Positions 8,010-37,708 of a stretch of DNA of 64,000 nucleotides are shown one piece after another. The notes under the pieces were generated by a model. It saw only the letters and a list, made by a program, of their open reading frames with translations, was not told the DNA's origin and did not search any database. Position 1 is the stretch's first letter. Each line of letters begins with the position of its first letter. Source of the DNA: a virus (taxonomy: Duplodnaviria > Heunggongvirae > Uroviricota > Caudoviricetes). Location of the stretch: the IMG/VR virus record IMGVR_UViG_3300017565_000001, positions 205,741 through 269,740 of that record, one strand, 5' to 3'. The position numbers were made by a program, and so were the translations under genes.

Positions 8010-8073
8010 ACCAGGTCTTGACTCCCTGTTCATTTGGTAGCAGAATACGCTATCAGATAACAGGGAGTCACAA

Positions 8074-19222: not shown

Positions 19223-19398
19223 ATAATATGCCACACTGATGGCATATAGGGAGCGAGGAAATGAAGGAATTCAAGACGCAGTTGAAGTACATGTGGACCT
19301 TTTTCATGGTCGACGTGAAACTGTACTTTCGCCCCCTGACATGGCTTTATGGTCGTTTACGAGCATTGATTACTCGTAAGTGATCAACCAGAATCCCA

Positions 19399-19513
19399 GG
19401 TTGGTTTCAGCAAACAAAACTTACTCTTCTGCAAAAAGAAAGGCCCAGGTTCGAATCCTGGCGTGGGGTTGGGATCCTACGTGGTGTAGTGGATAGCACA
19501 AAACATACCAACC
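19399..19513 (+). ncRNA. permuted tRNA-like CAGCAA RNA (YrlA-like topology)
   Basis: GGTTGGT/ACCAACC stem, TTCAGCAA, TCTT-CTGCAAA-AAGA hairpin, T-arm CCAGG-TTCGAAT-CCTGG, looped acceptor, D-arm; promoter TTGATT-17-CAGAAT. Confidence 0.8.
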
Positions 19514-19592
19514 AGTTATTAGGAAAACCTTGCTTTGTTCACCAAATGAATGTATTATTTGATACATGGTAAACAACAGCAAGGAGCACAAC

Positions 19593-21000: not shown

Positions 21001-21444
21001 ATGACGACACTCGCAGAAATCAAATCCCGCCAACTCGCTGCCCGCAAGGCTGGCCTCGATACCGAAAAGAACCTGCTCACGACGCTGATCGGTGAAATCG
21101 AAACCGAACTGCGCAAGCCGGCCGCCAAACCCGAAGCGGAAGTCGTGACATCCACGATCAAGAGCTTCTTGAAGAAGGTCAACGAATTCACGGCCAGCGG
21201 TGTCACGGGTGATCGTCTTGACGCTCTGGTGGCCGAAAAGGCCATCCTGGAGTCCTTCCTGCCTCAGCAACTGGATCGCGATGGTCTGTTCACCAAGCTG
21301 TCGGAACTGGCTGACCAACAGACCGAACTGGGCCCCAAGTTCAAGGGTGTGGCGATGAAGTACCTGAAGGACAACTTCGCCAACCAGTACGACGGCAAGG
21401 AAGCCTCCGGCATCATCGACGAGATCATCAAGGCTGGCGCATGA
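21001..21444 (+). CDS. YqeY/GatB-domain protein
   Basis: AARKA..LLTTLIGEIE..E..ILESFLPQQL..G.AMKYLK. Confidence 0.8.
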   Translation: MTTLAEIKSRQLAARKAGLDTEKNLLTTLIGEIETELRKPAAKPEAEVVTSTIKSFLKKVNEFTASGVTGDRLDALVAEKAILESFLPQQLDRDGLFTKLSELADQQTELGPKFKGVAMKYLKDNFANQYDGKEASGIIDEIIKAGA

Positions 21445-21899
21445 GTAACTGGGTCAATTGCCCCATGTGTGGTGAATCTGATATGCTGAAGGATGGCGAT
21501 CAGGTCCACTGCACGAACATGAACTGCGGTTCGAAGGGTGGAACGAATTTCAAAGGAGTGAAGCCCATGACCCTGTTTCAAGCAGTAAAGACAGCAAGTC
21601 GGAAGGGAGACTTGATTGTTCCGCAGCGTTCGCCCTATGCTGTATTGGCTGCCGCTCAGGCCGAACTCGGTGAAACCGCTGAAGAAATTGCCATCTTGAT
21701 GGGCGACAGCTACAAGGAACCAGGCTACGATGGTCCTTTGGGTGAAGCCCTCGACACCATCATCAGTTTGTTGGATCTCATTCATGTGCTGGAACCCAAC
21801 ATGACGGAAGCAGAGCTGATGATGATCGCTAGTTCCAAGCTCAACAAATGGACTAGCAAACTGGAAGAAAACAAACACAAGTTCAAGAAGCTGCCATGA
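21441..21899 (+). CDS. MazG-like NTP pyrophosphatase with N-terminal Zn ribbon
   Basis: CPMC..C..C; ELGETAEE...EALD. Confidence 0.65.
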   Translation: MSNWVNCPMCGESDMLKDGDQVHCTNMNCGSKGGTNFKGVKPMTLFQAVKTASRKGDLIVPQRSPYAVLAAAQAELGETAEEIAILMGDSYKEPGYDGPLGEALDTIISLLDLIHVLEPNMTEAELMMIASSKLNKWTSKLEENKHKFKKLP

Positions 21900-22285
21900 A
21901 ATCATTCCTCAACAAACTGGAATTGTGGTGGATTCTCAAGTGGAATCCATCACTGAAGCTGAGTGGCATTCATACCAAAGAGTGCGACAAGGTCAACAAA
22001 CACGCACTTGCTGTTCTTTGCACCAAAGAGCAAATGCAATATGCTGGCAAAACCTACGCGCTGACGATGTTGATCGAAGTCAGAATCACGAACGATGGGG
22101 TGGGCCTTGACTGTGCTGGATTTGAATGGATGTGCGTGGATTGGCCGGGAACTGACACAATGCCAGTGTGCATGACCCCCGAACTTGATCGAAAGGCCGA
22201 GCTCCTTATGTACATTCATCTAGAACTTTTTGGAGCTGAAACCGCGGCCGACATTGTCCACCTGTGTGGATTTGAACTTCAGTAA
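21896..22285 (+). CDS. hypothetical protein
   Basis: ATGA coupling. Confidence 0.7.
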   Translation: MKSFLNKLELWWILKWNPSLKLSGIHTKECDKVNKHALAVLCTKEQMQYAGKTYALTMLIEVRITNDGVGLDCAGFEWMCVDWPGTDTMPVCMTPELDRKAELLMYIHLELFGAETAADIVHLCGFELQ

Positions 22286-22296
22286 GGAGAACAATC

Positions 22297-22857
22297 ATGG
22301 AAGCACCCATCATTTACATTCCGAAATTTGTTGCTGATCCTGATGTTGCTTTTCAGCAACTGTGGGATGAACTCGCGTGGGTGCGCCATGACAAGGTTCC
22401 CCGTCGCGAGTACTACTCCAACGACGTACCACAGCCCTACACTTACGGGTTGAAGGATTATGCTCGCACGTACGAGCCGCAGCCCTGGCACCCAGTCATG
22501 AAGACCCTACAGGTCATGCTGAAGGCAGAAACCGGCCATGACTTTGAAGTCTGTTTCTTGAACGGATATGAAGATCAGTCCGATCAGCTGGGTTGGCACT
22601 CCGACGATTCGCCGGAGATGGATGACAACCGTCCCATCGCAATCATCAGCCTGGGTGTTGAGCGTGAAATCCACTTCCGTGAAATCGGCAACAAGAGCAA
22701 CCAGAATGACATTCACAAGGTCAAGCTGGGACACGGCAGTCTGTGCTTGATGAATGCCGGAATGCAGGACACGCATCAGCACCGCATTCCCAAAGCATCG
22801 TTCATGTGCGGTGCTCGTATCAGTTTGACCTTCCGCGGTTACGTACCCAATAACTGA
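22297..22857 (+). CDS. AlkB-family 2OG-Fe(II) dioxygenase
   Basis: LNGY..GWHSDD..SLG.ER..HRIPK..RISLTFR. Confidence 0.9.
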   Translation: MEAPIIYIPKFVADPDVAFQQLWDELAWVRHDKVPRREYYSNDVPQPYTYGLKDYARTYEPQPWHPVMKTLQVMLKAETGHDFEVCFLNGYEDQSDQLGWHSDDSPEMDDNRPIAIISLGVEREIHFREIGNKSNQNDIHKVKLGHGSLCLMNAGMQDTHQHRIPKASFMCGARISLTFRGYVPNN

Positions 22858-22864
22858 GAATAGT

Positions 22865-23059
22865 ATGTCACAAATCGATACGGAACGGTACATTGACAAA
22901 TTCTATCCCGATGGGATTCCGGATAGTGTTCTCATATCCTTGTACTCGTACTACCAGCCTTTCACGGATCATTCCGAAGGTGCTGCGCGAAACATCTGCA
23001 TCTTGATTGAAGAAATCGCCAGGACCCGCGGTGTGATCCTACCCAAGTTGAATACTTGA
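22865..23059 (+). CDS. hypothetical protein (paralog of next)
   Basis: YPDGI..LY.YYQP..IEEIARTRG. Confidence 0.7.
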   Translation: MSQIDTERYIDKFYPDGIPDSVLISLYSYYQPFTDHSEGAARNICILIEEIARTRGVILPKLNT

Positions 23060-23072
23060 TGCGGAGAACCAC

Positions 23073-23291
23073 ATGAGCAAGAAGAACAAGGTACCGTATG
23101 AGCGTCACATTGACAGCATGTTCCCCGATGGCATTGTGGACGAGGCGCTTATCTATTTGTACACCCAATATCAACCTGTGGGGTCAGGACCGCTTGGCCC
23201 CATGAAAATGGTGTGCGTGATGATCGAAGAGATCGCGAAGACTCGTGGCATCGAATTGCCGGCCGCCAAGGGGACAGGATTCAAGGAATGA
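23073..23291 (+). CDS. hypothetical protein (paralog of previous)
   Basis: FPDGI..LY.QYQP..IEEIAKTRG. Confidence 0.75.
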   Translation: MSKKNKVPYERHIDSMFPDGIVDEALIYLYTQYQPVGSGPLGPMKMVCVMIEEIAKTRGIELPAAKGTGFKE

Positions 23292-23329
23292 TTCACACTT
23301 GGGATAAATCGTCGTAACTGGAGAACGTT

Positions 23330-23764
23330 ATGGCGACCCTTGTGGAAATCAATGATGCGGTAAACAGGCTCATAAAGGGCCTGCTTGAACCTGTGGGTGA
23401 AGACTTGTGGCAGACACCGCAAGAAACAATTCAACTTGGTACTGGTGACTGCGAAGACCTGGCTATCCTCAAATATATTCTTGCTCGTAGGGCAGGATAT
23501 GACGCCAAAGTTTTGGCGGTGCAAGTCGCTGGCTATGGTGCCCACGTTGTGTGTTTGATACAAAGCGGGAAGCACAAGTGGATACTAGACAACCTGGCTA
23601 CTGAGATCGTGGAGCTTGATGCCAGACTAGGCGTAGATATCCTGAAGTTGATCTCAGTCTCAAGCGAAGGTATGCCACATAATGATCCACGGTTTGATGA
23701 CATGATGGCTAGGGGTGTTGACCACCAGATCGTTGGTGAGTTCGAAAAGAAAGCCGGCCTATAA
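23330..23764 (+). CDS. transglutaminase-like cysteine peptidase (C93/BTLCP, LapG-like)
   Basis: WQTPQET..G.GDCEDLAILKY, H, ILDN triad motifs. Confidence 0.85.
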   Translation: MATLVEINDAVNRLIKGLLEPVGEDLWQTPQETIQLGTGDCEDLAILKYILARRAGYDAKVLAVQVAGYGAHVVCLIQSGKHKWILDNLATEIVELDARLGVDILKLISVSSEGMPHNDPRFDDMMARGVDHQIVGEFEKKAGL

Positions 23765-23844
23765 TCACCTTCTGAAGTATTGCCACTCCTTTCGTGCTAT
23801 CGTGTACGATATGAGTGGCAATCGCCATATCCAAAAGGACAACA

Positions 23845-25359
23845 ATGACAATCAAGACCGGTGACTATATTGAAATCCCCAAAGGCACTGATGTGTGGCA
23901 TGGTCCATATTTCAATGACTTCCCCATTCCATCGGGAAGAAAGATAGTAACCGAAGTGGTGAAAGTCACATCAGTGACGATCTATCAATACGAGGACCAC
24001 CAGAGCTATTGTGGACGGAATGCATCATCAAATAGTTTTCCTTTGCGGCGCAGTACGTCAAAACCTAGTGGCCACTGCCATTATGGTGCGCTACCCCACA
24101 ACTCCAGCCAAGTAAGTGACTATCCAACTGAGGCGGCGGCAAGAGCGGCATGGCCAAGCAACAGCAATAGCATAAAGGATTGGATGGAAGAATGGCATGC
24201 TTGGCAGGCCGAAGTCGCGTCATGCGTGATTGCTGAACAGTGCGACTTCGTGGAAATCAGTAAGAATCGTTTCGTTCGAGCATCTGATGTAGCTGTAGTG
24301 CCAGCCCCAGAAGTCAAAGCCAAGGAAGTAAAAGTCACCAACTACCAGAAGATGCAACCCAAGTCCGTGTGGAAGAGTGACACTGACATTCAACTGGTGA
24401 CATATGACTGGCGCGCGTTTAATGCGCCAGGTTCTCAGGTTGTTGAAAATAAACTCACACCCATCCCTGCAGGGACTCACTTCACAATCACTGGTAAGGC
24501 CAAGAAGCTCTTTCATCCCAACGGCACAACCGATTCCATATGGTCACAAATGCAGAACGCATTCCCTATCGAATTCGTGGCAGTGACCGGAAAGAAGGTC
24601 AAGTCGTGGGCATTTTATCGACTGATCGAGAATGCGGAAATGGTGAAAGGTCCCGAAGTTGTTCCCGAGTTCGTATTGCTTGATACTGCGACTGGAAAGT
24701 TCTATACCGGTAATCCGTATGGATACGATACCACTCAAGAAATGTGGACAAATGCAGGCCTTTCGTATTCGGATCGCTACTCCAAGGCCAAGAAATTCAA
24801 ACGCCTTTCTGATGTCAGGGCCCACCTGTTGATTCAGAGTGGTTATTATTACGACCTCCATGAAAGCTGGGGAGCCGTTCCTGACTGGATGTGCCAATCC
24901 AAATCATTCGATGTTCCTGATACCTGGGTCATAGTCAAGTACGACAAGCTGACCAAGGTTGAAATGGAACGCATCGAAGCCCTCGACACGTTCAATCGAG
25001 CATGGAAACTTCGTGATCTGACCGTAAAGTATGGTAGTGCGGTCCGAAAGCTATACGGCGACTTGGACAAGAAGGGTGAGGTCGACAAATGGTCGGCTGC
25101 GATGTTCTATGTGGGTAAGAAGGAAGACACCACGTGGAATAGCATTTGGTACGAGGAGTTCTCTGACGAAAAGAAAAAAGAATTCCGAGAACTCACCAAG
25201 CAATTCGACAAGGATACGGCAAAGCTGGTTATGGGTAAGACTTCGGCCGCCATTGCTATCAAGGATCTGGAAACGGCGGTGATGCTCAGGCTTACGATGG
25301 ACACTAGTGAGTGGCTAGTCGTAGATTTCAAAACAATGACAGAGGTAGTGGAAAAGTAA
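23845..25359 (+). CDS. large hypothetical protein (504 aa)
   Basis: long ORF, AAGGA RBS. Confidence 0.85.
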   Translation: MTIKTGDYIEIPKGTDVWHGPYFNDFPIPSGRKIVTEVVKVTSVTIYQYEDHQSYCGRNASSNSFPLRRSTSKPSGHCHYGALPHNSSQVSDYPTEAAARAAWPSNSNSIKDWMEEWHAWQAEVASCVIAEQCDFVEISKNRFVRASDVAVVPAPEVKAKEVKVTNYQKMQPKSVWKSDTDIQLVTYDWRAFNAPGSQVVENKLTPIPAGTHFTITGKAKKLFHPNGTTDSIWSQMQNAFPIEFVAVTGKKVKSWAFYRLIENAEMVKGPEVVPEFVLLDTATGKFYTGNPYGYDTTQEMWTNAGLSYSDRYSKAKKFKRLSDVRAHLLIQSGYYYDLHESWGAVPDWMCQSKSFDVPDTWVIVKYDKLTKVEMERIEALDTFNRAWKLRDLTVKYGSAVRKLYGDLDKKGEVDKWSAAMFYVGKKEDTTWNSIWYEEFSDEKKKEFRELTKQFDKDTAKLVMGKTSAAIAIKDLETAVMLRLTMDTSEWLVVDFKTMTEVVEK

Positions 25360-25872
25360 ATGTTCACATTGAAAATTGGTGGTAAGTTGGATCGCTTCAT
25401 GAAAGAATGCGATGCATGGAAGCAAGCGTCGGCCGACGAAAAGGTAAACGGTTGTTTATTCCTGCGTTCTTTCCTGATCGCTAGTCTCAAGTACCTGATT
25501 GGCATTGCGATCATAGCGATAATGATTGTGGCTTTTTGGGCATTCTTTCGCTTCGCCGGTGAAGCAGTAGTCGCCTTGTGGCTACACTTTGTTCAAGGCA
25601 TGGAAAAAGAACAGATCGATAGCTTCGTGGAAAAACACGTGATATGGTTTTGGTTCGTGCCTCATATATTGGCGGCTGTGTGGTCAGTGATCTATCAAGC
25701 CATAAGAAAATGGCGGGATAATACTCGAAGTGCCCGTATCCGACAAAAGGAACTCCAAGAAGATTTGCGGAAATCCTTGCCACCTCCGCCACCCAGACAG
25801 CCCAATAAGGTGATCTTGATTCTTAAGGCTTTGGCTGGTAGAGCTTGCTTTAAGATCAACGTGGTGAAATAA
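25360..25872 (+). CDS. membrane protein
   Basis: two hydrophobic helices. Confidence 0.75.
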   Translation: MFTLKIGGKLDRFMKECDAWKQASADEKVNGCLFLRSFLIASLKYLIGIAIIAIMIVAFWAFFRFAGEAVVALWLHFVQGMEKEQIDSFVEKHVIWFWFVPHILAAVWSVIYQAIRKWRDNTRSARIRQKELQEDLRKSLPPPPPRQPNKVILILKALAGRACFKINVVK

Positions 25873-26618
25873 TGTCGTACATTGATTGTTTTGATCACTC
25901 GGACGTGGGCTCGTTCCTGGGCCTACGGCTTTATCACCCCCTTGAAATGTTGGACGACGAAGCGTGGCTCGCCGACCAAACTTGCTTGGTGCTGGGTGGT
26001 GGTGGCATTTATGGTAGTGGTGAACATCCGTCAATCGTGTTCAAAAGCCTGGACGAAGTCGTTTACTGGTACCTGGATTTTCTGGTTGACAACAAGCTAC
26101 TGGGTGATATCGATATGGATGACCCCGAGTACAAGACTTTGGAAGCGTTGCAGGATCTCATCCCAACTTTTACGGATAGAGAGTTCCCAGAATGTCAGAT
26201 CCATCACGCCTTATGTATGGGCCATATTGTTGAACTGGCCAAAGAAATTGACAAGGTGTTCGTATTTGACAATCCAGAGGGAAACAATTATCTGGAACCC
26301 AGATATGAACGAAAGCTCGCCATTCTGATGGGTGAGGTTGTATATCACTTGGGTCGCAGATTGTTGACAGCGCCTTTCCTGCAGGCTTTGGATAGGTTTG
26401 AACAGACTATTAGGCACAAGCGGCCATTCATGCGGCGACATTTTGACGTTTTGCAGCCAGCAATCTTGGGCTGGTCCTGTAGTGGACGCATCACGTACAC
26501 GGATGTCAATGGCAGAAAGAACGTCCATCATGGCGTGAGTTTCATAGACGAGGAAGCTATAATCAATATGGCACAAGACTTTCATATTAAGAGGGATAGT
26601 GATGTTAGAAAGGATTAA
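25872..26618 (+). CDS. hypothetical protein
   Basis: TAATG coupling, 248 aa. Confidence 0.8.
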   Translation: MSYIDCFDHSDVGSFLGLRLYHPLEMLDDEAWLADQTCLVLGGGGIYGSGEHPSIVFKSLDEVVYWYLDFLVDNKLLGDIDMDDPEYKTLEALQDLIPTFTDREFPECQIHHALCMGHIVELAKEIDKVFVFDNPEGNNYLEPRYERKLAILMGEVVYHLGRRLLTAPFLQALDRFEQTIRHKRPFMRRHFDVLQPAILGWSCSGRITYTDVNGRKNVHHGVSFIDEEAIINMAQDFHIKRDSDVRKD

Positions 26619-26813
26619 GAGGCCTGGTCGTCAACCAACCAGGTATGAACAACTGGAATTGATTCGCCATATTCCCAAGAGGGCTCCAGATGAGCGAATC
26701 ACAGTGCATCACATCACCGAACATGGCGTCAATACCCTACAACTTGAAATAGTTAGAAATTCCCCAACTTTGGGTCTTGCTTTTGAAAGAATCTTTCTGT
26801 AAACTGTTTTCTG

Positions 26814-26986
26814 TGGTTAGATACAGCAATGTACTCTGAAAATCCGACAAGTGGCGCAAGCCCAGAAGCATTTGAGTCGGTCGCTTGAATGCTTCTTTGA
26901 GGGTTCGACTCCCTCCACTGCTAAGGGTAAAACCTCTGTAGTGTGGTGAAATTGGTAGACACATCGGACTTAGACTCAACTAACCA
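26814..26986 (+). ncRNA. permuted tRNA-Leu-like CAGCAA RNA
   Basis: TGGTTAG/CTAACCA stem, ATACAGCAA, TCCGA..TCGGA stem, long variable arm, GAGGG-TTCGACT-CCCTC, looped acceptor, GGTGAAATTGGTAGACAC D-arm; promoter TTGCTT-17-TAAACT. Confidence 0.8.
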
Positions 26987-27076
26987 GTTTGTTCTCCTTA
27001 TTGGGCTCTGTTTGAAAGAGCAGAGCCCAATTCATAATGTGTTTTGGTATCAGATCACATTATGAATTGCAGTTTT

Positions 27077-27197
27077 GGGTTCGTTACAGCAAACAAACTA
27101 TCCTACTGGAATCAGCTTACCGTGGGTTCGAATCCCACCTGGAGTTTACACTCCAGTAGCCAAGTTGGTAAGGCAGCTGACGGAAAAACACGAACCC
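27077..27197 (+). ncRNA. permuted tRNA-like CAGCAA RNA
   Basis: GGGTTCGT/ACGAACCC stem, TACAGCAA, GTGGG-TTCGAAT-CCCAC, CTGGAGT-TTAC-ACTCCAG acceptor, GCCAAGTTGGTAAGGC D-arm. Confidence 0.85.
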
Positions 27198-27206
27198 GTT
27201 AATTTT

Positions 27207-27338
27207 TGGATCATTACAGCAACATACGATACCTCAAGCTCCGGACACGGGTTCGATTCCCGTAGACCATTAATTTGGTTTTCGTCTAGCGGCAGGATAG
27301 GAGCCTCGCATCGGTGGTAAGGCCCACCGGATGATCCA
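27207..27338 (+). ncRNA. permuted tRNA-Glu-like CAGCAA RNA
   Basis: TGGATCAT/ATGATCCA stem, TACAGCAA, CTCAA-GCTCC..GGAGC, ACGGG-TTCGATT-CCCGT, TCGTCTAGCGGCAGGA D-arm. Confidence 0.85.
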
Positions 27339-27346
27339 GTCATAAG

Positions 27347-27374
27347 TGAAAGCCAGGATTGCTCCTGGCTTTCA
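27347..27374 (+). terminator. terminator closing the permuted-RNA array
   Basis: TGAAAGCCAGGA-TTGC-TCCTGGCTTTCA. Confidence 0.65.
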
Positions 27375-27500
27375 TGCTTTCTGGCTTTCACAAACCAGAT
27401 TCGTCACACAAGATTGTAAAAGTCGTGCCAAATGCTTTGGCACCTCGACATCTTTGCCATTTCTTATCGTATAATTGTGTTCCTTAGTAGCGAACACAGG

Positions 27501-28124
27501 ATGTACGGAAACATGAATGAATTGGTAAAGCGCTTCACTGAAAAATACGGCAACATCGTTGGTGAGGCAACCAATGGTAGCGATGTGGCACCCATCGGCT
27601 TTATCGAAGCAAGCCAAACCTATATTGTGTTTTACCCAGACGCAATGGATCGGCAGGAATATTCCAGGGGTGGCCAAGTCAAATATCGCCCTGGGTATCA
27701 GGGGCCTGCCCTTACCTTCCAATCTCAGGAAGAAATCGACGAAGAAGAGGATGCGATCGATCGCATCCTGCGGGCAAGCCAAACTCTCCGTAAACGGAAG
27801 GGCAGGGAGGTTAAGGCTGCCAACACTCGCGATGTCAAGGAAGCAGTGTGGGACCGCCAAAAGGAATACCGGAATATCGAAATCCCTGATTTCCTGGAAG
27901 AGTTCATCACCAGAGCTGAACTGGCATTTCAAGAAATCATGAGCGCTGTTCAGGGCGACTTCCGAGTCTTTGATACGGCCCAGGCAGCTTTCAACGGCAT
28001 TCTGGACTGTGGCTTCTTCCTGAATGTGGTGTCGGATTTCACAGAAGACGACGTTCGCCAACTGCGCGATCTCCCGGAGAAGTATCATCTGTATCTGGGG
28101 GCAGACTACGTGGGACCTCAATGA
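27501..28124 (+). CDS. hypothetical protein
   Basis: 207-aa ORF. Confidence 0.75.
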   Translation: MYGNMNELVKRFTEKYGNIVGEATNGSDVAPIGFIEASQTYIVFYPDAMDRQEYSRGGQVKYRPGYQGPALTFQSQEEIDEEEDAIDRILRASQTLRKRKGREVKAANTRDVKEAVWDRQKEYRNIEIPDFLEEFITRAELAFQEIMSAVQGDFRVFDTAQAAFNGILDCGFFLNVVSDFTEDDVRQLRDLPEKYHLYLGADYVGPQ

Positions 28125-28501
28125 GCAAAACAGTGGACAGTGGAATCATAGAGAGTATCAAGCACTACGTGATGCACGGCCTTCACCCAGGATCATGTGG
28201 CAGAGCCATCATTCTGGGTGACTACGAATTGGCTAAAGGAACGGCTCATGCTTTGATCCGAAGAATGATGCAATCTTACCCAGAGGATGATCTGATTCAG
28301 AATATGATTGACTGGGTGAATAACACCTTGCCAGAGTTCATGCGATCCTCAGAAGAGAACTTCATCAACTGGGTGGATCATGCTGGTCTTGATGGAGCAG
28401 GAGATGAGATCAGAATGTTCATAAAGTTGAATCCTATCAGGAATATGGATAAGTGGGACTTGAGGTCTGTATGGGTGGAGGAAGGGAAGAAAGTAGTATA
28501 G
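28121..28501 (+). CDS. hypothetical protein
   Basis: ATGA coupling; HYV.HGL.PGS motif. Confidence 0.75.
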   Translation: MSKTVDSGIIESIKHYVMHGLHPGSCGRAIILGDYELAKGTAHALIRRMMQSYPEDDLIQNMIDWVNNTLPEFMRSSEENFINWVDHAGLDGAGDEIRMFIKLNPIRNMDKWDLRSVWVEEGKKVV

Positions 28502-28683
28502 ACATGTTTCACGAATATGTCGTAGATGCTATCACGAACCTTCTGTATGTCGTAGAACTCCAGGTAAGAATATCACAGATTCATGACGAGATTTGGTAAT
28601 CACTCATTGATGATGTGTCAATCTCCAGGTAGACTTCTGCAAACTCAAGCAATGGCAGCTTCAAAACAATAACAGGTTGAATA

Positions 28684-29298
28684 ATGGCAATTGGTTTCAA
28701 TGTAATTCGTTTGGCATCTGGTGGTTGGTTCAACTTTGATGAGCCCGAAAACAACAGGGTTCAGATCCAGGATGTGGCCCATGGTCTGGCGTTTATCTGC
28801 CGATATGGCGCGCAATGTCCTCGTTTCTATTCAGTAGCCAGCCACTCTGTCCTCGTCAGCCAAATTCTGTACCACATGGGTGAATCCATTCATGTACAAT
28901 ACGAAGGATTGATGCATGACTCCAGTGAAGCGTTCATGGGCGATATGGTGACCCCGCTGAAGCGGCTCTGTCCCGAATATGCTGGTATTGAAGGACGAGT
29001 GCTTGCCAACTTGGCTGAGACTTTCGGCTTCAACCATGAGTTTCACTCCAGCATGGACCAGGCTGACAAGACTGCTCTGGCTATGGAGAAATGGACGTTC
29101 TGGCCCGATTCTGAACCATGGGAAATTCTGATCAAATACGGTCTGGAAACTAGGGATGGTGGTCGAAACCAAAAGTGGGCGGCTTTGATGGAAGACCCAA
29201 GCATCAAGCGAGCATTGGTGACTGGTAGCTACGATGAGGCCAGCTATTTTCTGGATCATTACAACAAACTTCGCAAAGAGATTGATAATGGAAATTGA
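28684..29298 (+). CDS. HD-domain phosphohydrolase (YfdR/YfbR-like)
   Basis: DVAHGLA..CRY..YSVASHS..LMHDSSEAFMGDM. Confidence 0.88.
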   Translation: MAIGFNVIRLASGGWFNFDEPENNRVQIQDVAHGLAFICRYGAQCPRFYSVASHSVLVSQILYHMGESIHVQYEGLMHDSSEAFMGDMVTPLKRLCPEYAGIEGRVLANLAETFGFNHEFHSSMDQADKTALAMEKWTFWPDSEPWEILIKYGLETRDGGRNQKWAALMEDPSIKRALVTGSYDEASYFLDHYNKLRKEIDNGN

Positions 29299-29692
29299 AT
29301 CAAAACAAGTCATCGTGGTCCGTAAGGATCTGGGGATGCGCAAAGGCAAGATGATTGCGCAAGGAGCTCACGCCAGCATGGCGGCTGTAATCAACCAAGG
29401 CCACATCACCGAAGGGCAAGATCCCAATACCCATTATCTGGTCATCCCCATGGATCCAGAAATGCATGTGTGGATCAACGGTCGCTTCAAGAAGATTGCC
29501 GTATCGGTAAACAGCGAAGCAGAATTGCTGGCAATTCACCAGAAGGCCCTGGACGCTGGCCTTTACAGTGCCCTGATACAAGACGCAGGTCTGACGGAGT
29601 TTGGGGGCCAGGCGACCTATACGGCGGTGGCAGTCGGTCCCAATAGGGCTGATAAAGTCGACGCGATCACCGGCTCTCTGCCACTGCTCTGA
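29288..29692 (+). CDS. pth2: peptidyl-tRNA hydrolase, Pth2 type
   Basis: KQVIVVRKDL.M.KGK.IAQGAHA..DAGLTEF..T..AVGP..VD.ITG.LPLL. Confidence 0.92.
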   Translation: MEIESKQVIVVRKDLGMRKGKMIAQGAHASMAAVINQGHITEGQDPNTHYLVIPMDPEMHVWINGRFKKIAVSVNSEAELLAIHQKALDAGLYSALIQDAGLTEFGGQATYTAVAVGPNRADKVDAITGSLPLL

Positions 29693-29696
29693 TCAC

Positions 29697-30080
29697 ATGT
29701 TCGGCCGCTTCAAGCTGAATAGAAAGCGACGGCTTGCCCGTCGTATAGCTATCTGGCTTCTTGCTGACCACAAACTGGAGAAGCATTCTTCTCAGCTAAC
29801 AGCTTGGCATTTTCTTCATGAGAATGCGGACTTGTTGTGGACGAGTTTCTCTTCTGGGCGTCTATGGTTGCGGCGAATCAAACACAACAAAGATTTGAGT
29901 GCATCTGATCTGTTGATGAACAACATAAATCTCTGTCATATTCGTGACGGCTTACTATTCAACGACTGTGTTGAATCATCATCTTTTAGTTGGCGCATTC
30001 TGTTCCTTAGGGTGTATATAGGCTTTTTGATTTTCTTTATCTGCGCCCAAATAGCCAATATGATCTTCAACTTCATCTAG
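29697..30080 (+). CDS. hypothetical membrane-anchored protein
   Basis: C-terminal TM helix. Confidence 0.55.
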   Translation: MFGRFKLNRKRRLARRIAIWLLADHKLEKHSSQLTAWHFLHENADLLWTSFSSGRLWLRRIKHNKDLSASDLLMNNINLCHIRDGLLFNDCVESSSFSWRILFLRVYIGFLIFFICAQIANMIFNFI

Positions 30081-30159
30081 GTCAGGTGAATTAAACAACA
30101 CATTTACGAAACCCTGTTCGGCGATAAATACCATTGCTTTAGCTTTGGAGGACACGAAC

Positions 30160-30765
30160 ATGGCTACTCTAGTAGGGCGCTCGCCCAAAGACACGCTGGC
30201 AGAACTGCTCACATACAATAACGCAGCTGGCATCGGGTCAACACTCAACGCAATTGGTGATGGCGTAGGAAACGTCTCTCCATTGCAGCTTTCCACGACC
30301 CAAGTATCAATCAACAACCTGGTGTGGCCCACGACAGGCGCAAACCAAAACCGAGTTCTGGCTATTGGTGCATCCAATCAGCTGGAATGGCGTGATGGTT
30401 ATGTGACCACTACTGGTACCACCTTTACAGGTAATGTGAAGTTCTATACCACGACTGAGACTGTTGTGGCAATTCCTGGTACGACTGGCACTCGCACTAT
30501 TCCAGTCATGACTGGTACATACTTCACCGCAACTATCAGCGGTGCCACCACATTTGCATTCAGTGGCACACCAACTTCTGGTGATGCATACAGCATCACG
30601 ATCGAGATCACCAATGGTGGCTCGGCAAACCTGAACTGGCCCGCCTCAGTTGTGTGGCCAGCCGCCACGGCTCCAGTTTTGAGCACAAGCGGCGTTGACT
30701 ATGTGGTTCTGATCACCCGTAATGGTGGTACAACCTGGTATGGTCGTTCGAGCCTGGGTACTTGA
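30160..30765 (+). CDS. tail fiber-associated structural protein
   Basis: Thr/Gly-rich, ITNGG...WPA...P.L..SGVD...T..GGTTWYG C-terminal domain; TAAATA promoter. Confidence 0.7.
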   Translation: MATLVGRSPKDTLAELLTYNNAAGIGSTLNAIGDGVGNVSPLQLSTTQVSINNLVWPTTGANQNRVLAIGASNQLEWRDGYVTTTGTTFTGNVKFYTTTETVVAIPGTTGTRTIPVMTGTYFTATISGATTFAFSGTPTSGDAYSITIEITNGGSANLNWPASVVWPAATAPVLSTSGVDYVVLITRNGGTTWYGRSSLGT

Positions 30766-30790
30766 TTAAATAGTAGAACAGGAGATAGGA

Positions 30791-31402
30791 ATGTATATCA
30801 AACTTAATGAATCAGGACTTCCAACCGGTGACGTCGTGTCAATCGACGGTATCCGTATGGCAAATCCTTCGACCTCGGTCCCATCAAACCCAACTGACGA
30901 ACATTTGGTAGAATTGGGCTATGGGCGTTTCAAATACGTGGAATACCCAGCAGTTGACGAATTCACAGTCGTCACCGTTGGTGATTACGAACAAGATCAA
31001 GATGGTGTGTGGTTTCAGGACTACGTGCAGAACGACATTTCTCTGGAGACCGCTAAGGCTATCCTGAAGAAGCGCGTTGGTGAACGTCGTTGGGCTGTCG
31101 AAAGCGGTGGTATCACTGTTGGTGGCATTCTGGTTGACACTACCATCGAAGCACAAAACCGTATCAGCAGTGTTGTCCTTAACGGCACTCGTGTTGGTAT
31201 GGAAAGCATCAACTTCAAGTCACCAGATGGTGCATTCAATACCATCACTATGACACAAATGACAGCTATTGCCGACGCTATCGCTGCTCATGTGCAGAAT
31301 TGCTTCACCGCCGAAGCAACTCACTGCGCTGAAGTTGAAGCTCTGACTAGCTTGGCTGAAGTTCGCGAATATATGACTGGTGGCCTGCTGGCAAACTGGT
31401 AA
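30791..31402 (+). CDS. tail fiber assembly-like protein (DUF4376-type)
   Basis: RW..ESGGITV.G..VDT...Q..I..AI..HVQ.CF.AE. Confidence 0.7.
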   Translation: MYIKLNESGLPTGDVVSIDGIRMANPSTSVPSNPTDEHLVELGYGRFKYVEYPAVDEFTVVTVGDYEQDQDGVWFQDYVQNDISLETAKAILKKRVGERRWAVESGGITVGGILVDTTIEAQNRISSVVLNGTRVGMESINFKSPDGAFNTITMTQMTAIADAIAAHVQNCFTAEATHCAEVEALTSLAEVREYMTGGLLANW

Positions 31403-31535
31403 TATATTTCACTTAATGATGGGGAGCAATTGCTCCCCATCATTTTGAATGGTGAACATGAATAAGTGTTTGACGTTTTGAAATGGCGCAATCTATACTG
31501 GTGCCAATTAGCAATTGTCAACACGGACAAAGATC

Positions 31536-32093
31536 ATGAAGATTTCATATCGTATCGGGAACCTGCTCAATCATCCCGACAAATTTATCGCACAAGGATG
31601 CAACGCCCAGGGCCAGATGGGCTCTGGAGTAGCCGCAGCAATCAGGGGTCGATATCCTAAGGCATATGATGTGTATGCCGCCCACCATGAACGTTTTGGG
31701 TTGATCCTGGGCAACGTCATTGTCGCAGACTGTGTCCCCCACACGATACTGAACTGTATCACTCAAGAATTCTTTGGACGTGATGGCGGCCTTTATGTGA
31801 GCTACGACGCAATCGAGCGAGCAATTCAAACGGTCGATGAACTGATGCGTGTGGAGCGCAGCAAAATCTACACCAGCTGTGACATGCAGGGCGACCCCAG
31901 CCTGATCCCCAGGGTTGGTTATCCTCTCATTGGTGGCGATCTGGGTGGTGGTGATTGGGCCGTGATCAGCAAGATCATCGAAGACTTTTCGGATCACCAT
32001 CAACCAATAGTGTACTTGCTGGACCGAAAAGTCATTCAGGACAAGAATATCCCCGTCGAACAAGTTGACGAAACCTATCAGGAAAAGGCTTGA
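31536..32093 (+). CDS. macrodomain (ADP-ribose processing) protein
   Basis: GCNAQGQMGSGVA.AI..P.IGGDLGGGDW. Confidence 0.88.
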   Translation: MKISYRIGNLLNHPDKFIAQGCNAQGQMGSGVAAAIRGRYPKAYDVYAAHHERFGLILGNVIVADCVPHTILNCITQEFFGRDGGLYVSYDAIERAIQTVDELMRVERSKIYTSCDMQGDPSLIPRVGYPLIGGDLGGGDWAVISKIIEDFSDHHQPIVYLLDRKVIQDKNIPVEQVDETYQEKA

Positions 32094-32151
32094 CAAATGG
32101 CAAACCTAGCATAATACTGAAGATAACCCGGCGAACTATTACCAAGCCGGA

Positions 32152-32241
32152 TGGATCAAGACAGCAAAGTTATTTGGCACTTTCCAGCTACAGGCTGGAA
32201 AACAACAAAGATTGCCTAATCTCAAAATAGGCATTGATCCA
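32152..32241 (+). ncRNA. CAGCAA-stem RNA immediately upstream of DUF2828 gene
   Basis: TGGATCAA/TTGATCCA stem, GACAGCAA, two internal hairpins. Confidence 0.7.
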
Positions 32242-32365
32242 GAACGACAAACACACTTATACTATAGATTGAATATTTGAAATGAACTTGGGTGTGTAGA
32301 CCGTTTGTGGCTCATATTAGAGAATAGCCACAAACAACCACCCGTTAACCAAGGAGTAACACACG

Positions 32366-33781
32366 ATGTCCACTTTCGCTCAAGCAGTTGCCGCTCAAAC
32401 CACGACCACCACCAACGGTGCCAAGGCTTACACCTCCACCCTGAGTGCGGCGGTTGATCTGTTCTTCAAGATCGGCGCCAGCCGTGGCAAGAACATCATC
32501 TCGGATTTCACCGCCGCTTATGTGGAGAATCCGGATGTCGCTCTGCGTATCGCGCAATGGGCTCGTGACGTGCGTGGTGGCTCGGGAGAACGCCAAATCT
32601 TCCGTGACATCCTGCAACACCTGGAGAACTCGGCTCCGGCCGACGCCCAGCGTCTGATCAACAACATTCCGGAGATCGGACGCTGGGATGACCTCCTGGT
32701 CCTGACCAACCCCCTGCTGAAGCAACATGCTTTCGGCCTGATCAAGGTTGCGCTGGAAGCCGGCAACGGCCTCTGCGCAAAGTGGATGCCGCGCAAGGGT
32801 AAGGTCGCCGAAGAACTTCGCGCGTTCCTGGGCTATTCGCCCAAGCGTTACCGCAAGACTCTGGTGACGCTGACCCAAGTGGTCGAAACGCAGATGTGCG
32901 CCCAGCAATGGGATGAAATCGAATTCGGTAAGGTGCCCTCGGTCGCCGCTGCTCGTTACAAGAAGGCGTTCAACCGTAACGCGCCGGAAACTTTCGCCGC
33001 TTACGCGGACGCGCTGAGCAAGGGTGAAGCCAAGGTCAACGCTGGTGCGGTGTTCCCGTACGATGTGCTGAAGGGCGCATTCTCGCAGTATGGCCGTAAC
33101 TCCATGCCTCTGCCGGAACGTCAACACGCTATCGCCCAGTGGGCCGCTCTGGAAAACTTCGTGGGCGATGCATCGGTTCTGCCGATGGTCGACGTGTCGG
33201 GTTCCATGTACTGCCCGGCCGGTGGTCACAACTCCAAGTCGAACGTGACTTGTATGCAGGTCGCCGTTTCGCTTGGTCTGTATCTGGCGGAAAAGAACAC
33301 GGGCGCGTTCAAGGACACGTTCCTGACGTTTACCGATCAGCCCAAGCTGTACAACCTGAAGGGTGACGTCTTCCAGAAGATGGATCAGATGACCGGTAAG
33401 GTTGGCTACAGCACCAACATCCAAGCCGCTTTCCGTGAAGTTCTGCGTGTGGCGGTGGAAGGTAAGGTTGCTCAAGCTGACATGCCGGCAAACATCGTGA
33501 TCCTGAGCGATATGCAGTTCGACCAGGTGTCGCGTGACGACGCTACGGCGTTCGACATGATTCGCGAAGAGTACAAGGCCGCCGGCTACGACGCTCCGCG
33601 TATTGTGTTCTGGAACCTGAACGCGCATGGCAACGTTCCGACCCGCTTCAACCAGTCGGGTGTTGCACTGGTTTCGGGCTTCTCGCCCGCGATCGCGAAG
33701 ACCGTTCTGAAGGCCGAGAACTTCGACCCGATGAACATCATGCTGCAAGCTGTGATGGTTGACCGCTACACGCTGGCGTAA
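32366..33781 (+). CDS. DUF2828 family TROVE/Ro60-like RNA-binding protein with vWA domain
   Basis: TNG..ST..VDLFF..GASRG, RDVRGG.GER, GRWDDL, AKWMPR, YRK, VPS.A, vWA MIDAS DVSGSM, ILSDMQFD, FWNL, VSGFSP; strongly biased codons. Confidence 0.85.
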   Translation: MSTFAQAVAAQTTTTTNGAKAYTSTLSAAVDLFFKIGASRGKNIISDFTAAYVENPDVALRIAQWARDVRGGSGERQIFRDILQHLENSAPADAQRLINNIPEIGRWDDLLVLTNPLLKQHAFGLIKVALEAGNGLCAKWMPRKGKVAEELRAFLGYSPKRYRKTLVTLTQVVETQMCAQQWDEIEFGKVPSVAAARYKKAFNRNAPETFAAYADALSKGEAKVNAGAVFPYDVLKGAFSQYGRNSMPLPERQHAIAQWAALENFVGDASVLPMVDVSGSMYCPAGGHNSKSNVTCMQVAVSLGLYLAEKNTGAFKDTFLTFTDQPKLYNLKGDVFQKMDQMTGKVGYSTNIQAAFREVLRVAVEGKVAQADMPANIVILSDMQFDQVSRDDATAFDMIREEYKAAGYDAPRIVFWNLNAHGNVPTRFNQSGVALVSGFSPAIAKTVLKAENFDPMNIMLQAVMVDRYTLA

Positions 33782-33864
33782 GCTGGTTCCCTAGGGCGAT
33801 GGATAATCCATCGCCCTACCTTTGCCCAAAAGAATAACGTCCCAATCAATTTGAAGGTAACAAT

Positions 33865-35142
33865 ATGAATGCAGCATTTGATAGTCTGTACAAGAAAGCC
33901 GTTCTGAAGAACGTGGTGTCATGGGATGTGGCCACCAACCCGTTGTCTGACGCGCAGTCGTTGGAGGAGCAACTTGACGTTGAATACAACGATCAATTGG
34001 TGGCATTCATTGCTGCGAATCCAGATCATCCGGTGTCAAAGTTTGTTGGGCAGAATACCCTGAACAGTGACTTGATTGCTCGTAGCAGCACTATTACGAA
34101 TCGTCTCAGCAACAAGTACAAGGAGATGAAGAAGACCAGGGCTCCTGCTGACGCTGAATATTTCCGTCTCTTCCAGGATGCAATCGAGATCAGCAAGGAG
34201 GCATTGGCTTATTTGGGCCGAACCTCTGGTGATGCATTTACATTTCAGGATCCCATCCTGGGTACCAAGAAGCAAGTTTACGACTTGGTTCGTGGTATGG
34301 CTGACATCAGTAGGGAGTTCATGCAGAGTGGTCGCACGAATGTGAACGAGCAAAAGCTTACGAAAACGTTCCAGGATGGTCTCCAATACATGGATGCCAT
34401 TCAGGGTATCTCCTACAAGATCTCCGATGAAAACGGGTCGTTCATGACAGCTTTGGACAAGAACAATTCTCGGATCCACATTGCGAAGACTGACAAGAGC
34501 GATTTCGAGAAACTGTCGAGTGTCACCCACGAAGTCGGCCACGCTCTTTACCAGAATATGTTCTTGAACAAGCTACCCATCGGCCAATTGGGTGACTGTC
34601 TGTCCCTGTCATTGCATGAGAGCTCGTCCATCTTCAACGAGATTTCTCTGAGCGGCATCAATCCTGAGATCAAACTGGAACCCGCCTCCCTGTATCGCCT
34701 GGGTTCCAACAAACTGGCCTACATCATCCACATCTTCATCCGTATGGAAGTTGAACGGATGTTGTTCGAGGAGAATATGCCAGCAAGCGATATCCCGCAA
34801 GCATGGAACAAGCTGGTTGAGTCATACATCGGGTTGACTCCCAGTAACGACTGGGAAGGCTTCCTGCAGGATGTTCACTGGAATCACGGCATGTTTGGTT
34901 ACTTCCACAGCTATGCCATCGGATTCCTGAATGCCACTCTGATGTATAGTGACGTGAAAGACCAACTGACTGGTGACATGTTGCGCGACACTATGGAAGT
35001 GGTGATGCCCAAGATCGGCAAGGAATATGGTGATCGTTTTGACGAAATGTCATCTAACATCCTGTCGACCGTTCACCCTGACATCCAGGAAACTTTGACT
35101 CGTTATCGTGCATTTGTCTTTGATACCTTCTCAAACGCCTAA
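33865..35142 (+). CDS. M32 family metallocarboxypeptidase
   Basis: HEVGHALY, LHESSS, LQDVHW..G.FGYF.SY. Confidence 0.88.
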   Translation: MNAAFDSLYKKAVLKNVVSWDVATNPLSDAQSLEEQLDVEYNDQLVAFIAANPDHPVSKFVGQNTLNSDLIARSSTITNRLSNKYKEMKKTRAPADAEYFRLFQDAIEISKEALAYLGRTSGDAFTFQDPILGTKKQVYDLVRGMADISREFMQSGRTNVNEQKLTKTFQDGLQYMDAIQGISYKISDENGSFMTALDKNNSRIHIAKTDKSDFEKLSSVTHEVGHALYQNMFLNKLPIGQLGDCLSLSLHESSSIFNEISLSGINPEIKLEPASLYRLGSNKLAYIIHIFIRMEVERMLFEENMPASDIPQAWNKLVESYIGLTPSNDWEGFLQDVHWNHGMFGYFHSYAIGFLNATLMYSDVKDQLTGDMLRDTMEVVMPKIGKEYGDRFDEMSSNILSTVHPDIQETLTRYRAFVFDTFSNA

Positions 35143-35175
35143 CTAAATACCGGCGTCATTTTGAAGGAGATTTAA

Positions 35176-35415
35176 ATGGCAAAGAAGATCGATGAATCGA
35201 AGGTAGTACCAGGTTTCACTGGGCCCTTCCATCCTGTTGACGAAGGCAAGGCAGGCGGCTTCTGCGGCGTATGGTATAAGCGTGATGATGGCAAGTGGTC
35301 ACACATTTGCTCTGGTCTCGCCCCAGAAAACGCGAAGGCAATTGCTGGTGCTCTGAATAAACGCGGATTGTTTGGTGGACTCAATGAGTTTGCCAAGAGC
35401 GTAAAGCTCGTGTAA
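35176..35415 (+). CDS. hypothetical late protein
   Basis: TAAATA, AAGGAG; terminator 35433-35460. Confidence 0.75.
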   Translation: MAKKIDESKVVPGFTGPFHPVDEGKAGGFCGVWYKRDDGKWSHICSGLAPENAKAIAGALNKRGLFGGLNEFAKSVKLV

Positions 35416-35574
35416 AGGCTACTGGCCTCTGAGAAAGGTGATCTTCGGATCACCTTTTTTGTAACCATGTGAAATATTTCTTCATTTGGTGTTGACTTGT
35501 CCAACCACGTATGTACAATGTGATACATGGCGGTAACGCACAAACAACTGAAGCAAACACAAGAAGAGTTAAAC

Positions 35575-35988
35575 ATGGCAAACGCACAAACGGTCGAAAT
35601 CCTGAAGGTTGGTCACGCTCTGGTCGCTGGCACCCGTGGTGAAAATGGCGGCGCTCCTAGCAAGGACAGCATCTGGGGTTTGGCGCGTATCCAAGGCAAC
35701 CTGGTCAAGTTCTACGGTCGTCGCGGTGGTGTGCTGCGCTACAAGACGGCTCGTAAGGTCGATCTGGAACTGGTCCTCGCGCAATACGACAGCAAGCTGA
35801 ACGGCACCGACGGCAAGGGCATCCAATACAAGGACCTCACGGCCGACGAACAAGCGATCGTGGTCCCCGGTCTGCAAGACTTCGTGAAGAAGGGCTTCTA
35901 CAAGGCCATGGGCTGCGGCAAGCTGAACAACCGTGACACCAAGAAGCCGGCCAAGGCTGCTCCGGTGGCAGACGCTGCGACGGCCTAA
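35575..35988 (+). CDS. hypothetical protein, highly expressed codon bias
   Basis: TTCATTTGG promoter; terminator 36008-36032. Confidence 0.8.
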   Translation: MANAQTVEILKVGHALVAGTRGENGGAPSKDSIWGLARIQGNLVKFYGRRGGVLRYKTARKVDLELVLAQYDSKLNGTDGKGIQYKDLTADEQAIVVPGLQDFVKKGFYKAMGCGKLNNRDTKKPAKAAPVADAATA

Positions 35989-36049
35989 ACAAACAGGATA
36001 CAAACAACAAAGGGACCCCTGGGGTCCCTTTTCGTTGTATAATGGCACC

Positions 36050-36343
36050 ATGCAAAAGACCATCTCCAACGGTGTCATTACCGATCGGGCAAGTTATCAC
36101 ATTGTCAACCAATATGGTTGGGAGCCTCGTGCTTGTTTTGAAATCCTCTATACACTTCCAGGATTTGGTGCCAACGAGTCTGCCGCGCTCGCTGACATCG
36201 AGGCTACGTTGTGGCAAACTGTAAATGGGCGAGTCTATCACTACTACGAAACCCTTTTGCGCGACTACGAGTTCTGTATAACATTCACCATTTACTTTGA
36301 ACACCAGGAAGATGCCCTATTGTTCAAATTGGCAGCCGCCTGA
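36050..36343 (+). CDS. FExxEDAxxFKL family protein
   Basis: FEHQEDALLFKL. Confidence 0.75.
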   Translation: MQKTISNGVITDRASYHIVNQYGWEPRACFEILYTLPGFGANESAALADIEATLWQTVNGRVYHYYETLLRDYEFCITFTIYFEHQEDALLFKLAAA

Positions 36344-36642
36344 TGGACCAACGTGATATCGTTATGAGCGACATGGTGCTACCGTCGTCGCCTATCTATA
36401 TGGTTGGTAATGAACAAGTCACTATGGTGGCCGGACTTGTTATCGACTGTCATTGTGACTTCATGCAAGCACTCGACTATCGTCTTGAAATGGAAACGTG
36501 GCTCAAAAATAATGGCCAAGCCAGATTTAACGTCATTATGAATTCAGCTCATAAAGAATACGATAGACCTTGCTATCGTGTTCGAATATTATTCGAAAGC
36601 ATCGAAGACGCCATCTATATCAAGTTGAAATACGGTGGGTGA
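36343..36642 (+). CDS. FExxEDAxxFKL family protein
   Basis: FESIEDAIYIKLKY. Confidence 0.75.
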   Translation: MDQRDIVMSDMVLPSSPIYMVGNEQVTMVAGLVIDCHCDFMQALDYRLEMETWLKNNGQARFNVIMNSAHKEYDRPCYRVRILFESIEDAIYIKLKYGG

Positions 36643-36717
36643 ACTGAAGTTTGATTGGTGTTGATCCAAACGAATTTTCATGTAGAATGAATACTTCATC
36701 AAACAAGGAGGATCACC

Positions 36718-37705: not shown

Positions 37706-37708
37706 CTT

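Follow-up and report, generated by a model that had tools for sequence, protein, structure and literature searches.

What are the three permuted, tRNA-like elements that lie at 26814-27338 of a 64,000-nucleotide (nt) stretch of a Caudoviricetes genome? The stretch, referred to here as the window, covers 205741-269740 of a phage genome that is 424.5 kb long and has terminal repeats (IMG/VR record IMGVR_UViG_3300017565_000001), and positions are those of the window unless a genome or locus is named. An earlier note, made from the letters of this DNA, had described the elements as three circularly permuted tRNA mimics built on one scaffold, and had offered two alternatives for their nature, namely true permuted tRNA genes or RNAs resembling Y RNAs. 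The analysis reported here favours the second. The three units are probably Y-RNA-like tRNA mimics which would dock, by means of a common handle, onto a divergent Ro60 protein encoded by the phage itself.

All three units are built in the same order. The 5' strand of a closing stem is followed after 0-2 nt by the word ACAGCAA and by a linker ending in an anticodon-like heptamer, which leads into the 3' strand of an anticodon stem. A variable region, a T-arm, the 3' strand of an acceptor stem, a closing loop and the 5' strand of the acceptor stem occupy the middle, and the 3' part consists of a D-arm, the 5' strand of the anticodon stem, a linker and the 3' strand of the closing stem. Unit 1 (26814-26986, plus strand), recognised from sequence and fold, has this handle around a permuted class-II (Leu-like) tRNA mimic, with the closing stem at 26814-26820 / 26980-26986, ACAGCAA at 26823-26829, anticodon-stem strands at 26843-26847 / 26964-26968, the T-arm at 26899-26915, acceptor strands at 26916-26921 / 26938-26943 and a Leu-type D-arm at 26946-26962. 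Its acceptor stem is closed by a 16-nt hairpin insert, and its variable region extends over 51 nt (26848-26898) and includes a 14-bp hairpin. Unit 2 (27077-27197, plus strand) and unit 3 (27207-27338, plus strand) are additionally matched by the covariance model R1 described below. In unit 2 the closing stem (27077-27084 / 27190-27197) and ACAGCAA (27086-27092) enclose a T-arm at 27122-27138, a perfect 7-bp acceptor stem (27139-27145 / 27150-27156) with the loop UUAC, and a D-arm at 27159-27174; the anticodon-like heptamer is ACUGGAA. Unit 3 is a Glu-like mimic in which the closing stem (27207-27214 / 27331-27338) and ACAGCAA (27216-27222) surround a T-arm at 27247-27263, acceptor strands at 27264-27269 / 27276-27281 joined by the 6-base closing loop UUAAUU, and a Glu-type D-arm at 27284-27298. 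Its heptamer is ACCUCAA, and an additional hairpin (27312-27329) adjoins the handle.

The residues that shape a tRNA elbow are present in every unit on inspection: U8, A14, G18G19, a T-loop of the form UUCGAxU and a 15:48 pair (G:C, G:C and A:U in units 1, 2 and 3). Minimum free energy (MFE) folds show the closing stems, T-arms and acceptor hairpins, with z-scores of -3.3, -3.8 and -2.1 respectively, and the predicted 5' and 3' ends of all three pair into a terminal stem of 7-8 bp, reaching up to 10 bp in the MFE folds. When the units are re-joined by script in normal order, ARAGORN calls units 2 and 3 as cloverleaf tRNAs; it makes no call on re-joined unit 1, because of the 51-nt variable region and the 16-nt insert in the acceptor loop. 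Sequence, folds and re-joining together bear out what the earlier note had described, as every part that it listed is found, and they support its core reading of one common scaffold holding different tRNA bodies that could not be aminoacylated as transcribed. The word that it gave as conserved, CAGCAA, is present, but the conserved word is one base longer (ACAGCAA). Its proposal that the bodies derive from different tRNAs is plausible, the bodies being mutually distinct, but recent copying is not supported: the closest phage tRNA to unit 3 is Glu(UUC) at only 76%, the closest to unit 1 are class-II Ser/Leu tRNAs, and unit 2 is ambiguous.

The handle recurs far beyond this locus, with hundreds of phage contigs carrying it. 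As an operational family definition, it was taken to be a closing stem of at least 7 bp (7-10 bp), followed by 0-3 nt and then by (A/G/U)CAGCAA, and all three units fit this definition. The pattern ACAGCAA...GGTTCRANTCC is found five times on the plus strand of the 424-kb genome and neither on the minus strand nor in a reversed control, and it is present in more than 116 viral contigs among the matches listed. Out of 161 pattern matches in the fetched loci and the window, 68 have a sealed acceptor stem together with a flanking closing stem; the seals are mostly loops of 3-7 nt, and 12 of these 68 retain N-CCA plus a spacer. Model R1 was derived from a MAFFT alignment of 39 permuted elements, all from other phages, which were chosen partly by their acceptor pairing, the T and D stems playing no part in selection. 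The RNAalifold consensus of this alignment consists of T-arm, sealed acceptor stem and D-arm, with compensatory changes in 14 of 16 pairs. R1 matches unit 2 over the whole model (69.6 bits, E 1.7e-11) and unit 3 at 40.5 bits (E 5.5e-6), whereas unit 1 is matched only in part (26899-26974, 20.3 bits, E 0.036) because of its inserts. Orthologous operons in which covariation of precisely these units could be judged were not found; in a blastn comparison with all the fetched loci, matches did not go beyond the level of the D-arm.

This recurrence bears on the simplest alternative, that the units are decayed or rearranged tRNA pseudogenes without function. Such an origin would be in keeping with the lack of CCA, the non-canonical loops and the large inserts of unit 1. 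It is nevertheless extremely unlikely, since the tertiary-contact residues and the helices are all intact, and since many unrelated phages have the same scaffold, with compensatory changes, and its occurrence is strand-specific.

A candidate partner for the handle, not named in the earlier note's account of the units, emerged from the same loci. When the open reading frames (ORFs) of at least 200 aa from the 116 loci retrieved solely by the RNA pattern were clustered, a single protein family stood out, present in 32 of the 116 loci and with a median length of 488 aa. The sole homologue of this ~490-aa family in the genome is the 471-aa product of 32366-33781, encoded on the same (plus) strand as the units. 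Pfam places DUF2828 (6e-29) and DUF7788 (3e-44) in this protein, and its AlphaFold2 model, computed from 29 sequences, has a mean predicted local distance difference test score of 84. The top 13 Foldseek matches to the predicted model are all Ro60/TROVE structures. VIA-align comparison with ten Ro60 entries gave Z from 17.0 to 11.9 with 382-412 residues aligned at a root-mean-square deviation of 4.4-6.3 Å, while the next fold consists of vWA domains alone at Z of 8.5 or less. The predicted layout is a ring of helical repeats with a C-terminal vWA domain carrying a MIDAS motif, of which the DxSGS residues (D276, S278, G279 and S280) are invariant. On this modelling, the protein has a full-length Ro60 fold. 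The family is found in 711 GenBank phage records, among them Felix O1-like, T4-like, Listeria, Staphylococcus, Campylobacter and mycobacterial phages. Another ORF considered as the partner, the 514-aa frame just upstream (23815-25359), was dropped: it has no Pfam match and its N-terminal part does not look helical by eye. Its 35 protein-database hits at E of 0.001 or less all lack both informative names and Pfam domains, and the viral contigs yielded no close copy.

The association was then examined from the opposite direction, by counting stemmed ACAGCAA handles in 79 loci (805 kb) picked by the protein alone. There are 148 handles on the strand of the gene against 13 on the opposite strand, compared with 9-12 in reversed-sequence controls, and at least one handle is present in 59 of the 79 loci. 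Position is equally specific, 99 of the 148 gene-strand handles lying within 1 kb upstream of the gene. The loci are rich in tRNA genes, and the handles peak beside the Ro60-like gene and are rare over the rest of the tRNA-rich flanks. It might be supposed that the handle RNAs are real but work with a different protein, of phage or host, or that the module of stem and ACAGCAA acts in cis or as a ribozyme, the linkage being a by-product of tRNA-gene islands. Both handles and Ro60-like gene do reside in tRNA-rich regions, and the units are 5 kb away from the gene. This explanation appears rather unlikely, given the peak within 1 kb upstream on the gene strand, the pairing of handle and protein in phages whose hosts are as far apart as Mycobacterium, Escherichia and Cronobacter (the word being a variant one in the Cronobacter phage), and the failure of the handle RNAs to match any known ribozyme or other Rfam family.

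Ro60 and its Y RNAs form a conserved, poorly understood RNA-surveillance particle. The Y RNAs termed YrlA, encoded by over 250 bacteria and 22 phages next to Ro60 and on its strand, mimic tRNAs, their ends being paired and their acceptor stem sealed; the motif GNCGAA(N)G lies close to the 5' end (Chen et al. 2014, PMC4201824). The handle RNAs resemble YrlA (Rfam RF02553) in having a paired-end stem followed by a short conserved single-stranded word, in the order of T-arm, sealed acceptor and D-arm, and in their occurrence, often as several RNAs per locus, on the same strand as a gene for a Ro60-fold protein. They differ in that (A/G/U)CAGCAA stands in place of GNCGAA(N)G, and in that their payload is modular: it may be one of several tRNA types, a bare hairpin resembling an anticodon arm, a large fold that is not tRNA-like, or a tRNA of normal order from which the handle branches off. 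A further difference is that the protein belongs to a DUF2828/DUF7788 branch with no TROVE match in Pfam. Against the Rfam YrlA model, unit 2 scores 35.5 bits over the core only (gathering score 69), units 1 and 3 go unmatched up to an E of 10, and no hit reaches the threshold in 16 related loci (150 kb). When the spacing typical of YrlA (within ~4 kb of the Ro60 gene) is applied, the units fall at 5.0-5.5 kb, and another handle RNA (32152-32241) falls at 125 nt. It is very unlikely that the units are ordinary YrlA RNAs working with a host Rsr/Ro60 instead of the phage protein. The E of 7e-6 for the core of unit 2 could be cited in favour of that idea; however, the match reaches half the gathering score and is limited to the tRNA-like core, GNCGAA is absent, the related loci contain no hit at threshold, and the phage has a Ro60-fold protein of its own.

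Handle RNAs and known Y RNAs meet in the mycobacteriophage LeBron, whose gp53, annotated as a 'Ro-like RNA binding protein', is 31% identical to the protein at 32366-33781. Three handle RNAs lie directly downstream of gp53 (locus coordinates 3860-4125), and the middle one, a permuted tRNA-like RNA, aligns with the whole Rfam YrlA model at a sub-threshold 39.8 bits. Judged by these sequence matches, LeBron is a bridge between the two groups. The Thermus phage phiLo encodes a Ro60 that binds the phage Y-like RNAs Yrl1 and Yrl2 as well as host PNPase (PMC12135203; PDB 9KOP, 9L5Y). It provides the best structural match to the protein studied here (Z 17.0), and both systems combine a phage Ro60 ring, predicted in the present case, with partner RNAs upstream of its gene. 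The phiLo RNAs differ from the handle RNAs in being stem-bulge-stem Y RNAs with CGAA that are not described as tRNA mimics, and protein identity is ~16%.

Further relatives are found in phages of enterobacteria and aeromonads. In the Felixounavirus Bas63, the Ro60-like gp130 counters the Ppl defence according to a 2024 preprint on PhageMaP (PMC11482910), the authors of which guessed that some neighbouring tRNA genes are Y RNAs; the partner RNAs were not identified there. Genus and gene position indicate that gp130 very probably belongs to the same family as the protein at 32366-33781. Felixounavirus homologues are ~40% identical to that protein and are encoded directly upstream of a tRNA array. 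In one member of the genus, Escherichia phage Andreotti, four unannotated handle RNAs occupy gaps in the tRNA array that immediately follows the gene for a Ro60-like 'vWFA protein' (locus 6668-6759, 6836-6913 and 7618-8047); their stem has the form AGACC... / ...GGUCU, and one of them is a permuted tRNA mimic. Similarly, 'tRNA genes' of 113-122 nt are annotated beside the Ro60-like gene in Cronobacter phage S13 (locus 4824-4944 and 4954-5066) and Aeromonas phage Aeh1 (7109-7230). Their anticodon arm carries a hairpin plus UAUUCAGCA or ACCGCAA, apparently the forms that the handle word takes in T4-like phages. Neither Rfam nor the literature searched (permuted tRNA with phage; DUF2828; ACAGCAA with tRNA) yielded a description of the ACAGCAA handle RNAs, and a 2026 preprint on tRNA mimics deals with other motifs.

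Within the window, the handle recurs at least four more times beyond units 1-3. A further permuted tRNA mimic with the variant word UCAGCAA lies at 19399-19513 on the plus strand, supported by its fold and by an R1 match at 19398-19520 (50.8 bits, E 6e-8). It has a free CUGCAAA hairpin, and part of it is mis-called by ARAGORN as tRNA-Cys (19393-19470). A TTGACA promoter is predicted ahead of a handle RNA at 32152-32241 (plus strand), which has a non-tRNA payload of two hairpins and is separated by 125 nt from the Ro60-like gene downstream. A mini handle RNA with the GCAGCAA variant and a hairpin payload, read from sequence and fold, lies at 1284-1344 (plus strand), where a predicted promoter (TTGACG-17-TAACAT) would start transcription at the first base of the stem. 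A second mini, at genome 181164-181221, is almost identical in its stem (GGGAUAC / GUAUCCC) and, like the first, has a single hairpin as payload. At genome 202363-202611, 3.1-3.4 kb before the window, a highly structured RNA of ~250 nt with a payload that is not tRNA-like lies inside the handle AGGAUUG...ACAGCAA / CAAUCCU. Short payloads are common elsewhere too, as many handles in the 79 protein-chosen loci enclose only 31-65 nt, which is too short for a tRNA. Where the body is a tRNA, the point of attachment varies, being at 26/27, within the anticodon stem, at the loop or in the variable arm. A genome-wide scan for handles with 6-bp stems was too noisy for use. Two other occurrences of ACAGCAA were set aside. 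The first is a 22-bp palindromic hairpin at ~1709-1770, which has the word on both strands and yet no handle, and the second, probably a chance match inside a long intron, falls within a tRNA-like gene of ~290 nt (2376-2660). This latter gene, tRNA-shaped (GGGCCCU...AGGGUCCACCA) and called by neither Rfam nor ARAGORN, is split by ~210 nt between its D-arm and T-arm sides, which may represent a group-I-type or other long intron.

The remaining additional handle has a normal-order, CCA-ending, tRNA-shaped gene as its setting (3805-3932, plus strand). Although missed by ARAGORN, this gene is one of the five genome pattern matches and scores 45.5 bits over 128 nt with the Rfam tRNA model. In its fold the handle is a closed hairpin plus UACAGCAA, forming a branch of ~55 nt off the anticodon arm. 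Because the handle sits there inside a tRNA of normal order, units 1-3 are exact circular permutations of the same layout. Circularly permuted tRNA genes were reportedly described by Soma et al. in 2007 in Cyanidioschyzon merolae, and occur also in other algae and in archaea. Genes of this kind yield working tRNAs through a circular intermediate and a bulge-helix-bulge splicing endonuclease. As in C. merolae, the 3' half of the units precedes the 5' half and the acceptor ends are joined by a short linker; unlike in C. merolae, the units have no visible bulge-helix-bulge or CCA, and they have non-canonical loops, a conserved terminal handle and a proposed Ro60-like partner.

The handle module in the normal-order gene prompted consideration of the first alternative of the earlier note, according to which the units would be true permuted intron-exon tRNA genes. 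The handle would then be a protein-dependent tRNA intron, and cuts at both junctions followed by ligation, for example by phage RtcB, would give a circular pre-tRNA that RNase P, 3' trimming and CCA addition would open into a working tRNA, as in C. merolae. Besides the permuted order of the two halves of one tRNA and the exact correspondence with 3805-3932, this reading draws on several relatives in which joining the halves would restore an anticodon arm with a flawless 5-bp stem and a canonical loop of 7 nt, on the relatives that keep N-CCA plus spacer, and on the canonical heptamer of unit 1 (CUGAAAA). The phage also encodes RtcB and Rnl2-type ligases and a weakly supported RLIG1-like protein (37842-38675). 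However, payloads of 31-65 nt, or the single hairpins of the two minis of this genome, cannot hold a tRNA. Junction positions and linker lengths vary without a conserved cut-site motif, and inspection of the unit folds reveals no bulge-helix-bulge. CCA is encoded by none of units 1-3, as opposed to 48 of the 56 ARAGORN tRNA calls of the same phage, leaving room for CCA addition after trimming. Units 2 and 3, once re-joined, give AC-NNN-AA with C instead of U at position 33, and 6-nt loops occur in relatives. Normal tRNAs of the phage, among them Pro(UGG), Glu, Phe and Leu, already serve every one of the 20 amino acids. The protein linked to the handle is an RNA-binding one of Ro60 fold, not an endonuclease, and the anticodon helix could form equally well without splicing, the handle then branching off at the side. 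This reading lost ground through the tests of the partner protein, the comparison of CCA ends and the short payloads that are not tRNAs, and is considered unlikely. A version that incorporates the protein, in which the Ro60-like ring would hold the handle as a protein-assisted intron while the halves are cut and a phage ligase such as RtcB joins them into circular pre-tRNAs, to be opened into working or defence-resistant tRNAs, is regarded as decidedly improbable.

Some observations weigh against the interpretation of the units as Y-RNA-like partners of the phage Ro60. They miss the gathering score of Rfam YrlA and have no GNCGAA motif, and no candidate for Pfam TROVE (PF05731) exists anywhere in the genome. 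The N-CCA plus spacer kept at the sealed acceptor end of 12 of the 68 relatives, and the several pairs of halves that would rebuild a perfect anticodon arm, would also fit splicing. The units are on the same strand as the Ro60-like gene but not directly beside it, being 5.0-5.5 kb upstream with ~10 ORFs intervening. Finally, the linkage of handle and protein could be due in part to their shared residence in tRNA-gene regions, though the peak of handles in the 1 kb ahead of the gene speaks for something more.

Docking onto the phage Ro60 nonetheless remains the preferred interpretation, and suggests how the units may work. They would be genes for small non-coding RNAs of the Y-RNA type, the 5' and 3' ends of each RNA pairing into a helix of 7-10 bp that runs into single-stranded ACAGCAA. 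This handle would be the docking site for the Ro60-like ring protein (32366-33781), taking the role of the paired-end stem with GGUCCGA or GNCGAA in animal and bacterial Y RNAs. The remainder of each RNA would form an L-shaped tRNA mimic, which could not be charged since its acceptor end is sealed by a loop. What the mimic would display is the elbow, variable region and anticodon-like heptamer of one tRNA type, Leu/class-II-like in unit 1, unassigned in unit 2 and Glu-like in unit 3. The resulting ribonucleoprotein may bring a tRNA-recognising factor to the Ro60-like protein, or may keep such a factor off its target; candidates are defence proteins, host nucleases and enzymes of processing or modification. 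Such a particle would probably serve RNA surveillance or repair, or else counter-defence during infection.

The signals flanking the units are less distinct than the units themselves. The promoter proposed in the earlier note does exist as a sequence (TTGCTT-17 nt-TAAACT, 26777-26805, plus strand), is sigma-70-like and would start transcription at ~26812, just ahead of the stem of unit 1. It is a weak candidate, with 3/6 and 4/6 consensus matches, and a promoter consensus scan gave no call there. The terminator proposed after unit 3 corresponds to a real 13-bp hairpin (27346-27375, plus strand; z -4.48), which has no clean U-tract and received no call in a terminator scan. Since the promoter is weak and the last hairpin has no clean U-tract, 'promoter', 'terminator' and 'one operon' are putative designations. 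Between units 1 and 2, two abutting long hairpins (27001-27068, plus strand) are present as had been described and are strongly structured (MFE -37.6 kcal/mol, z -7.06), the first with a GC-rich 12-bp stem and the second with an AU-rich 12-bp stem followed by UUUU. The role as processing signals that had been attached to them is the unproven part of that description; judging from their make-up, they could be either a terminator for unit 1 or processing sites.

The wider surroundings are rich in RNA genes and in genes concerned with RNA. ARAGORN makes 56 tRNA calls across the genome, 25 of them in the first 20 kb of the window, as well as a transfer-messenger RNA call at genome 41648-42040 with the tag peptide ANDNVYAAAA. 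A GOLLD RNA (10127-10591, Rfam 199.9 bits) has a tRNA-Asn-like domain inside it at 10191-10265, and GOLLD is likewise near the Ro60-like gene in a related locus (L135). The handle RNAs are surrounded by a cluster of translation and RNA-care genes (21001-38675), which encodes YqeY-like (21001-21444), AlkB-like 2-oxoglutarate oxygenase (22297-22857), HD-domain YfbR-like (28684-29298), Pth2 peptidyl-tRNA hydrolase (29234-29692) and M32 carboxypeptidase (33865-35142) proteins, together with the weak RLIG1-like RNA ligase mentioned above.

Taken together, the recurrence of the handle and its linkage to a protein with a predicted Ro60 fold suggest a second, very widespread phage branch of the Ro60/Y-RNA particle. 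The partner RNAs of this branch would be modular, combining one short handle with interchangeable cargo, often mimics of specific tRNAs and in either gene order. If this is true, many 'odd tRNA genes' and unannotated gaps of phage tRNA arrays would be Y-like RNAs, and the anti-Ppl phenotype of Bas63 gp130 would gain candidate RNA cofactors.

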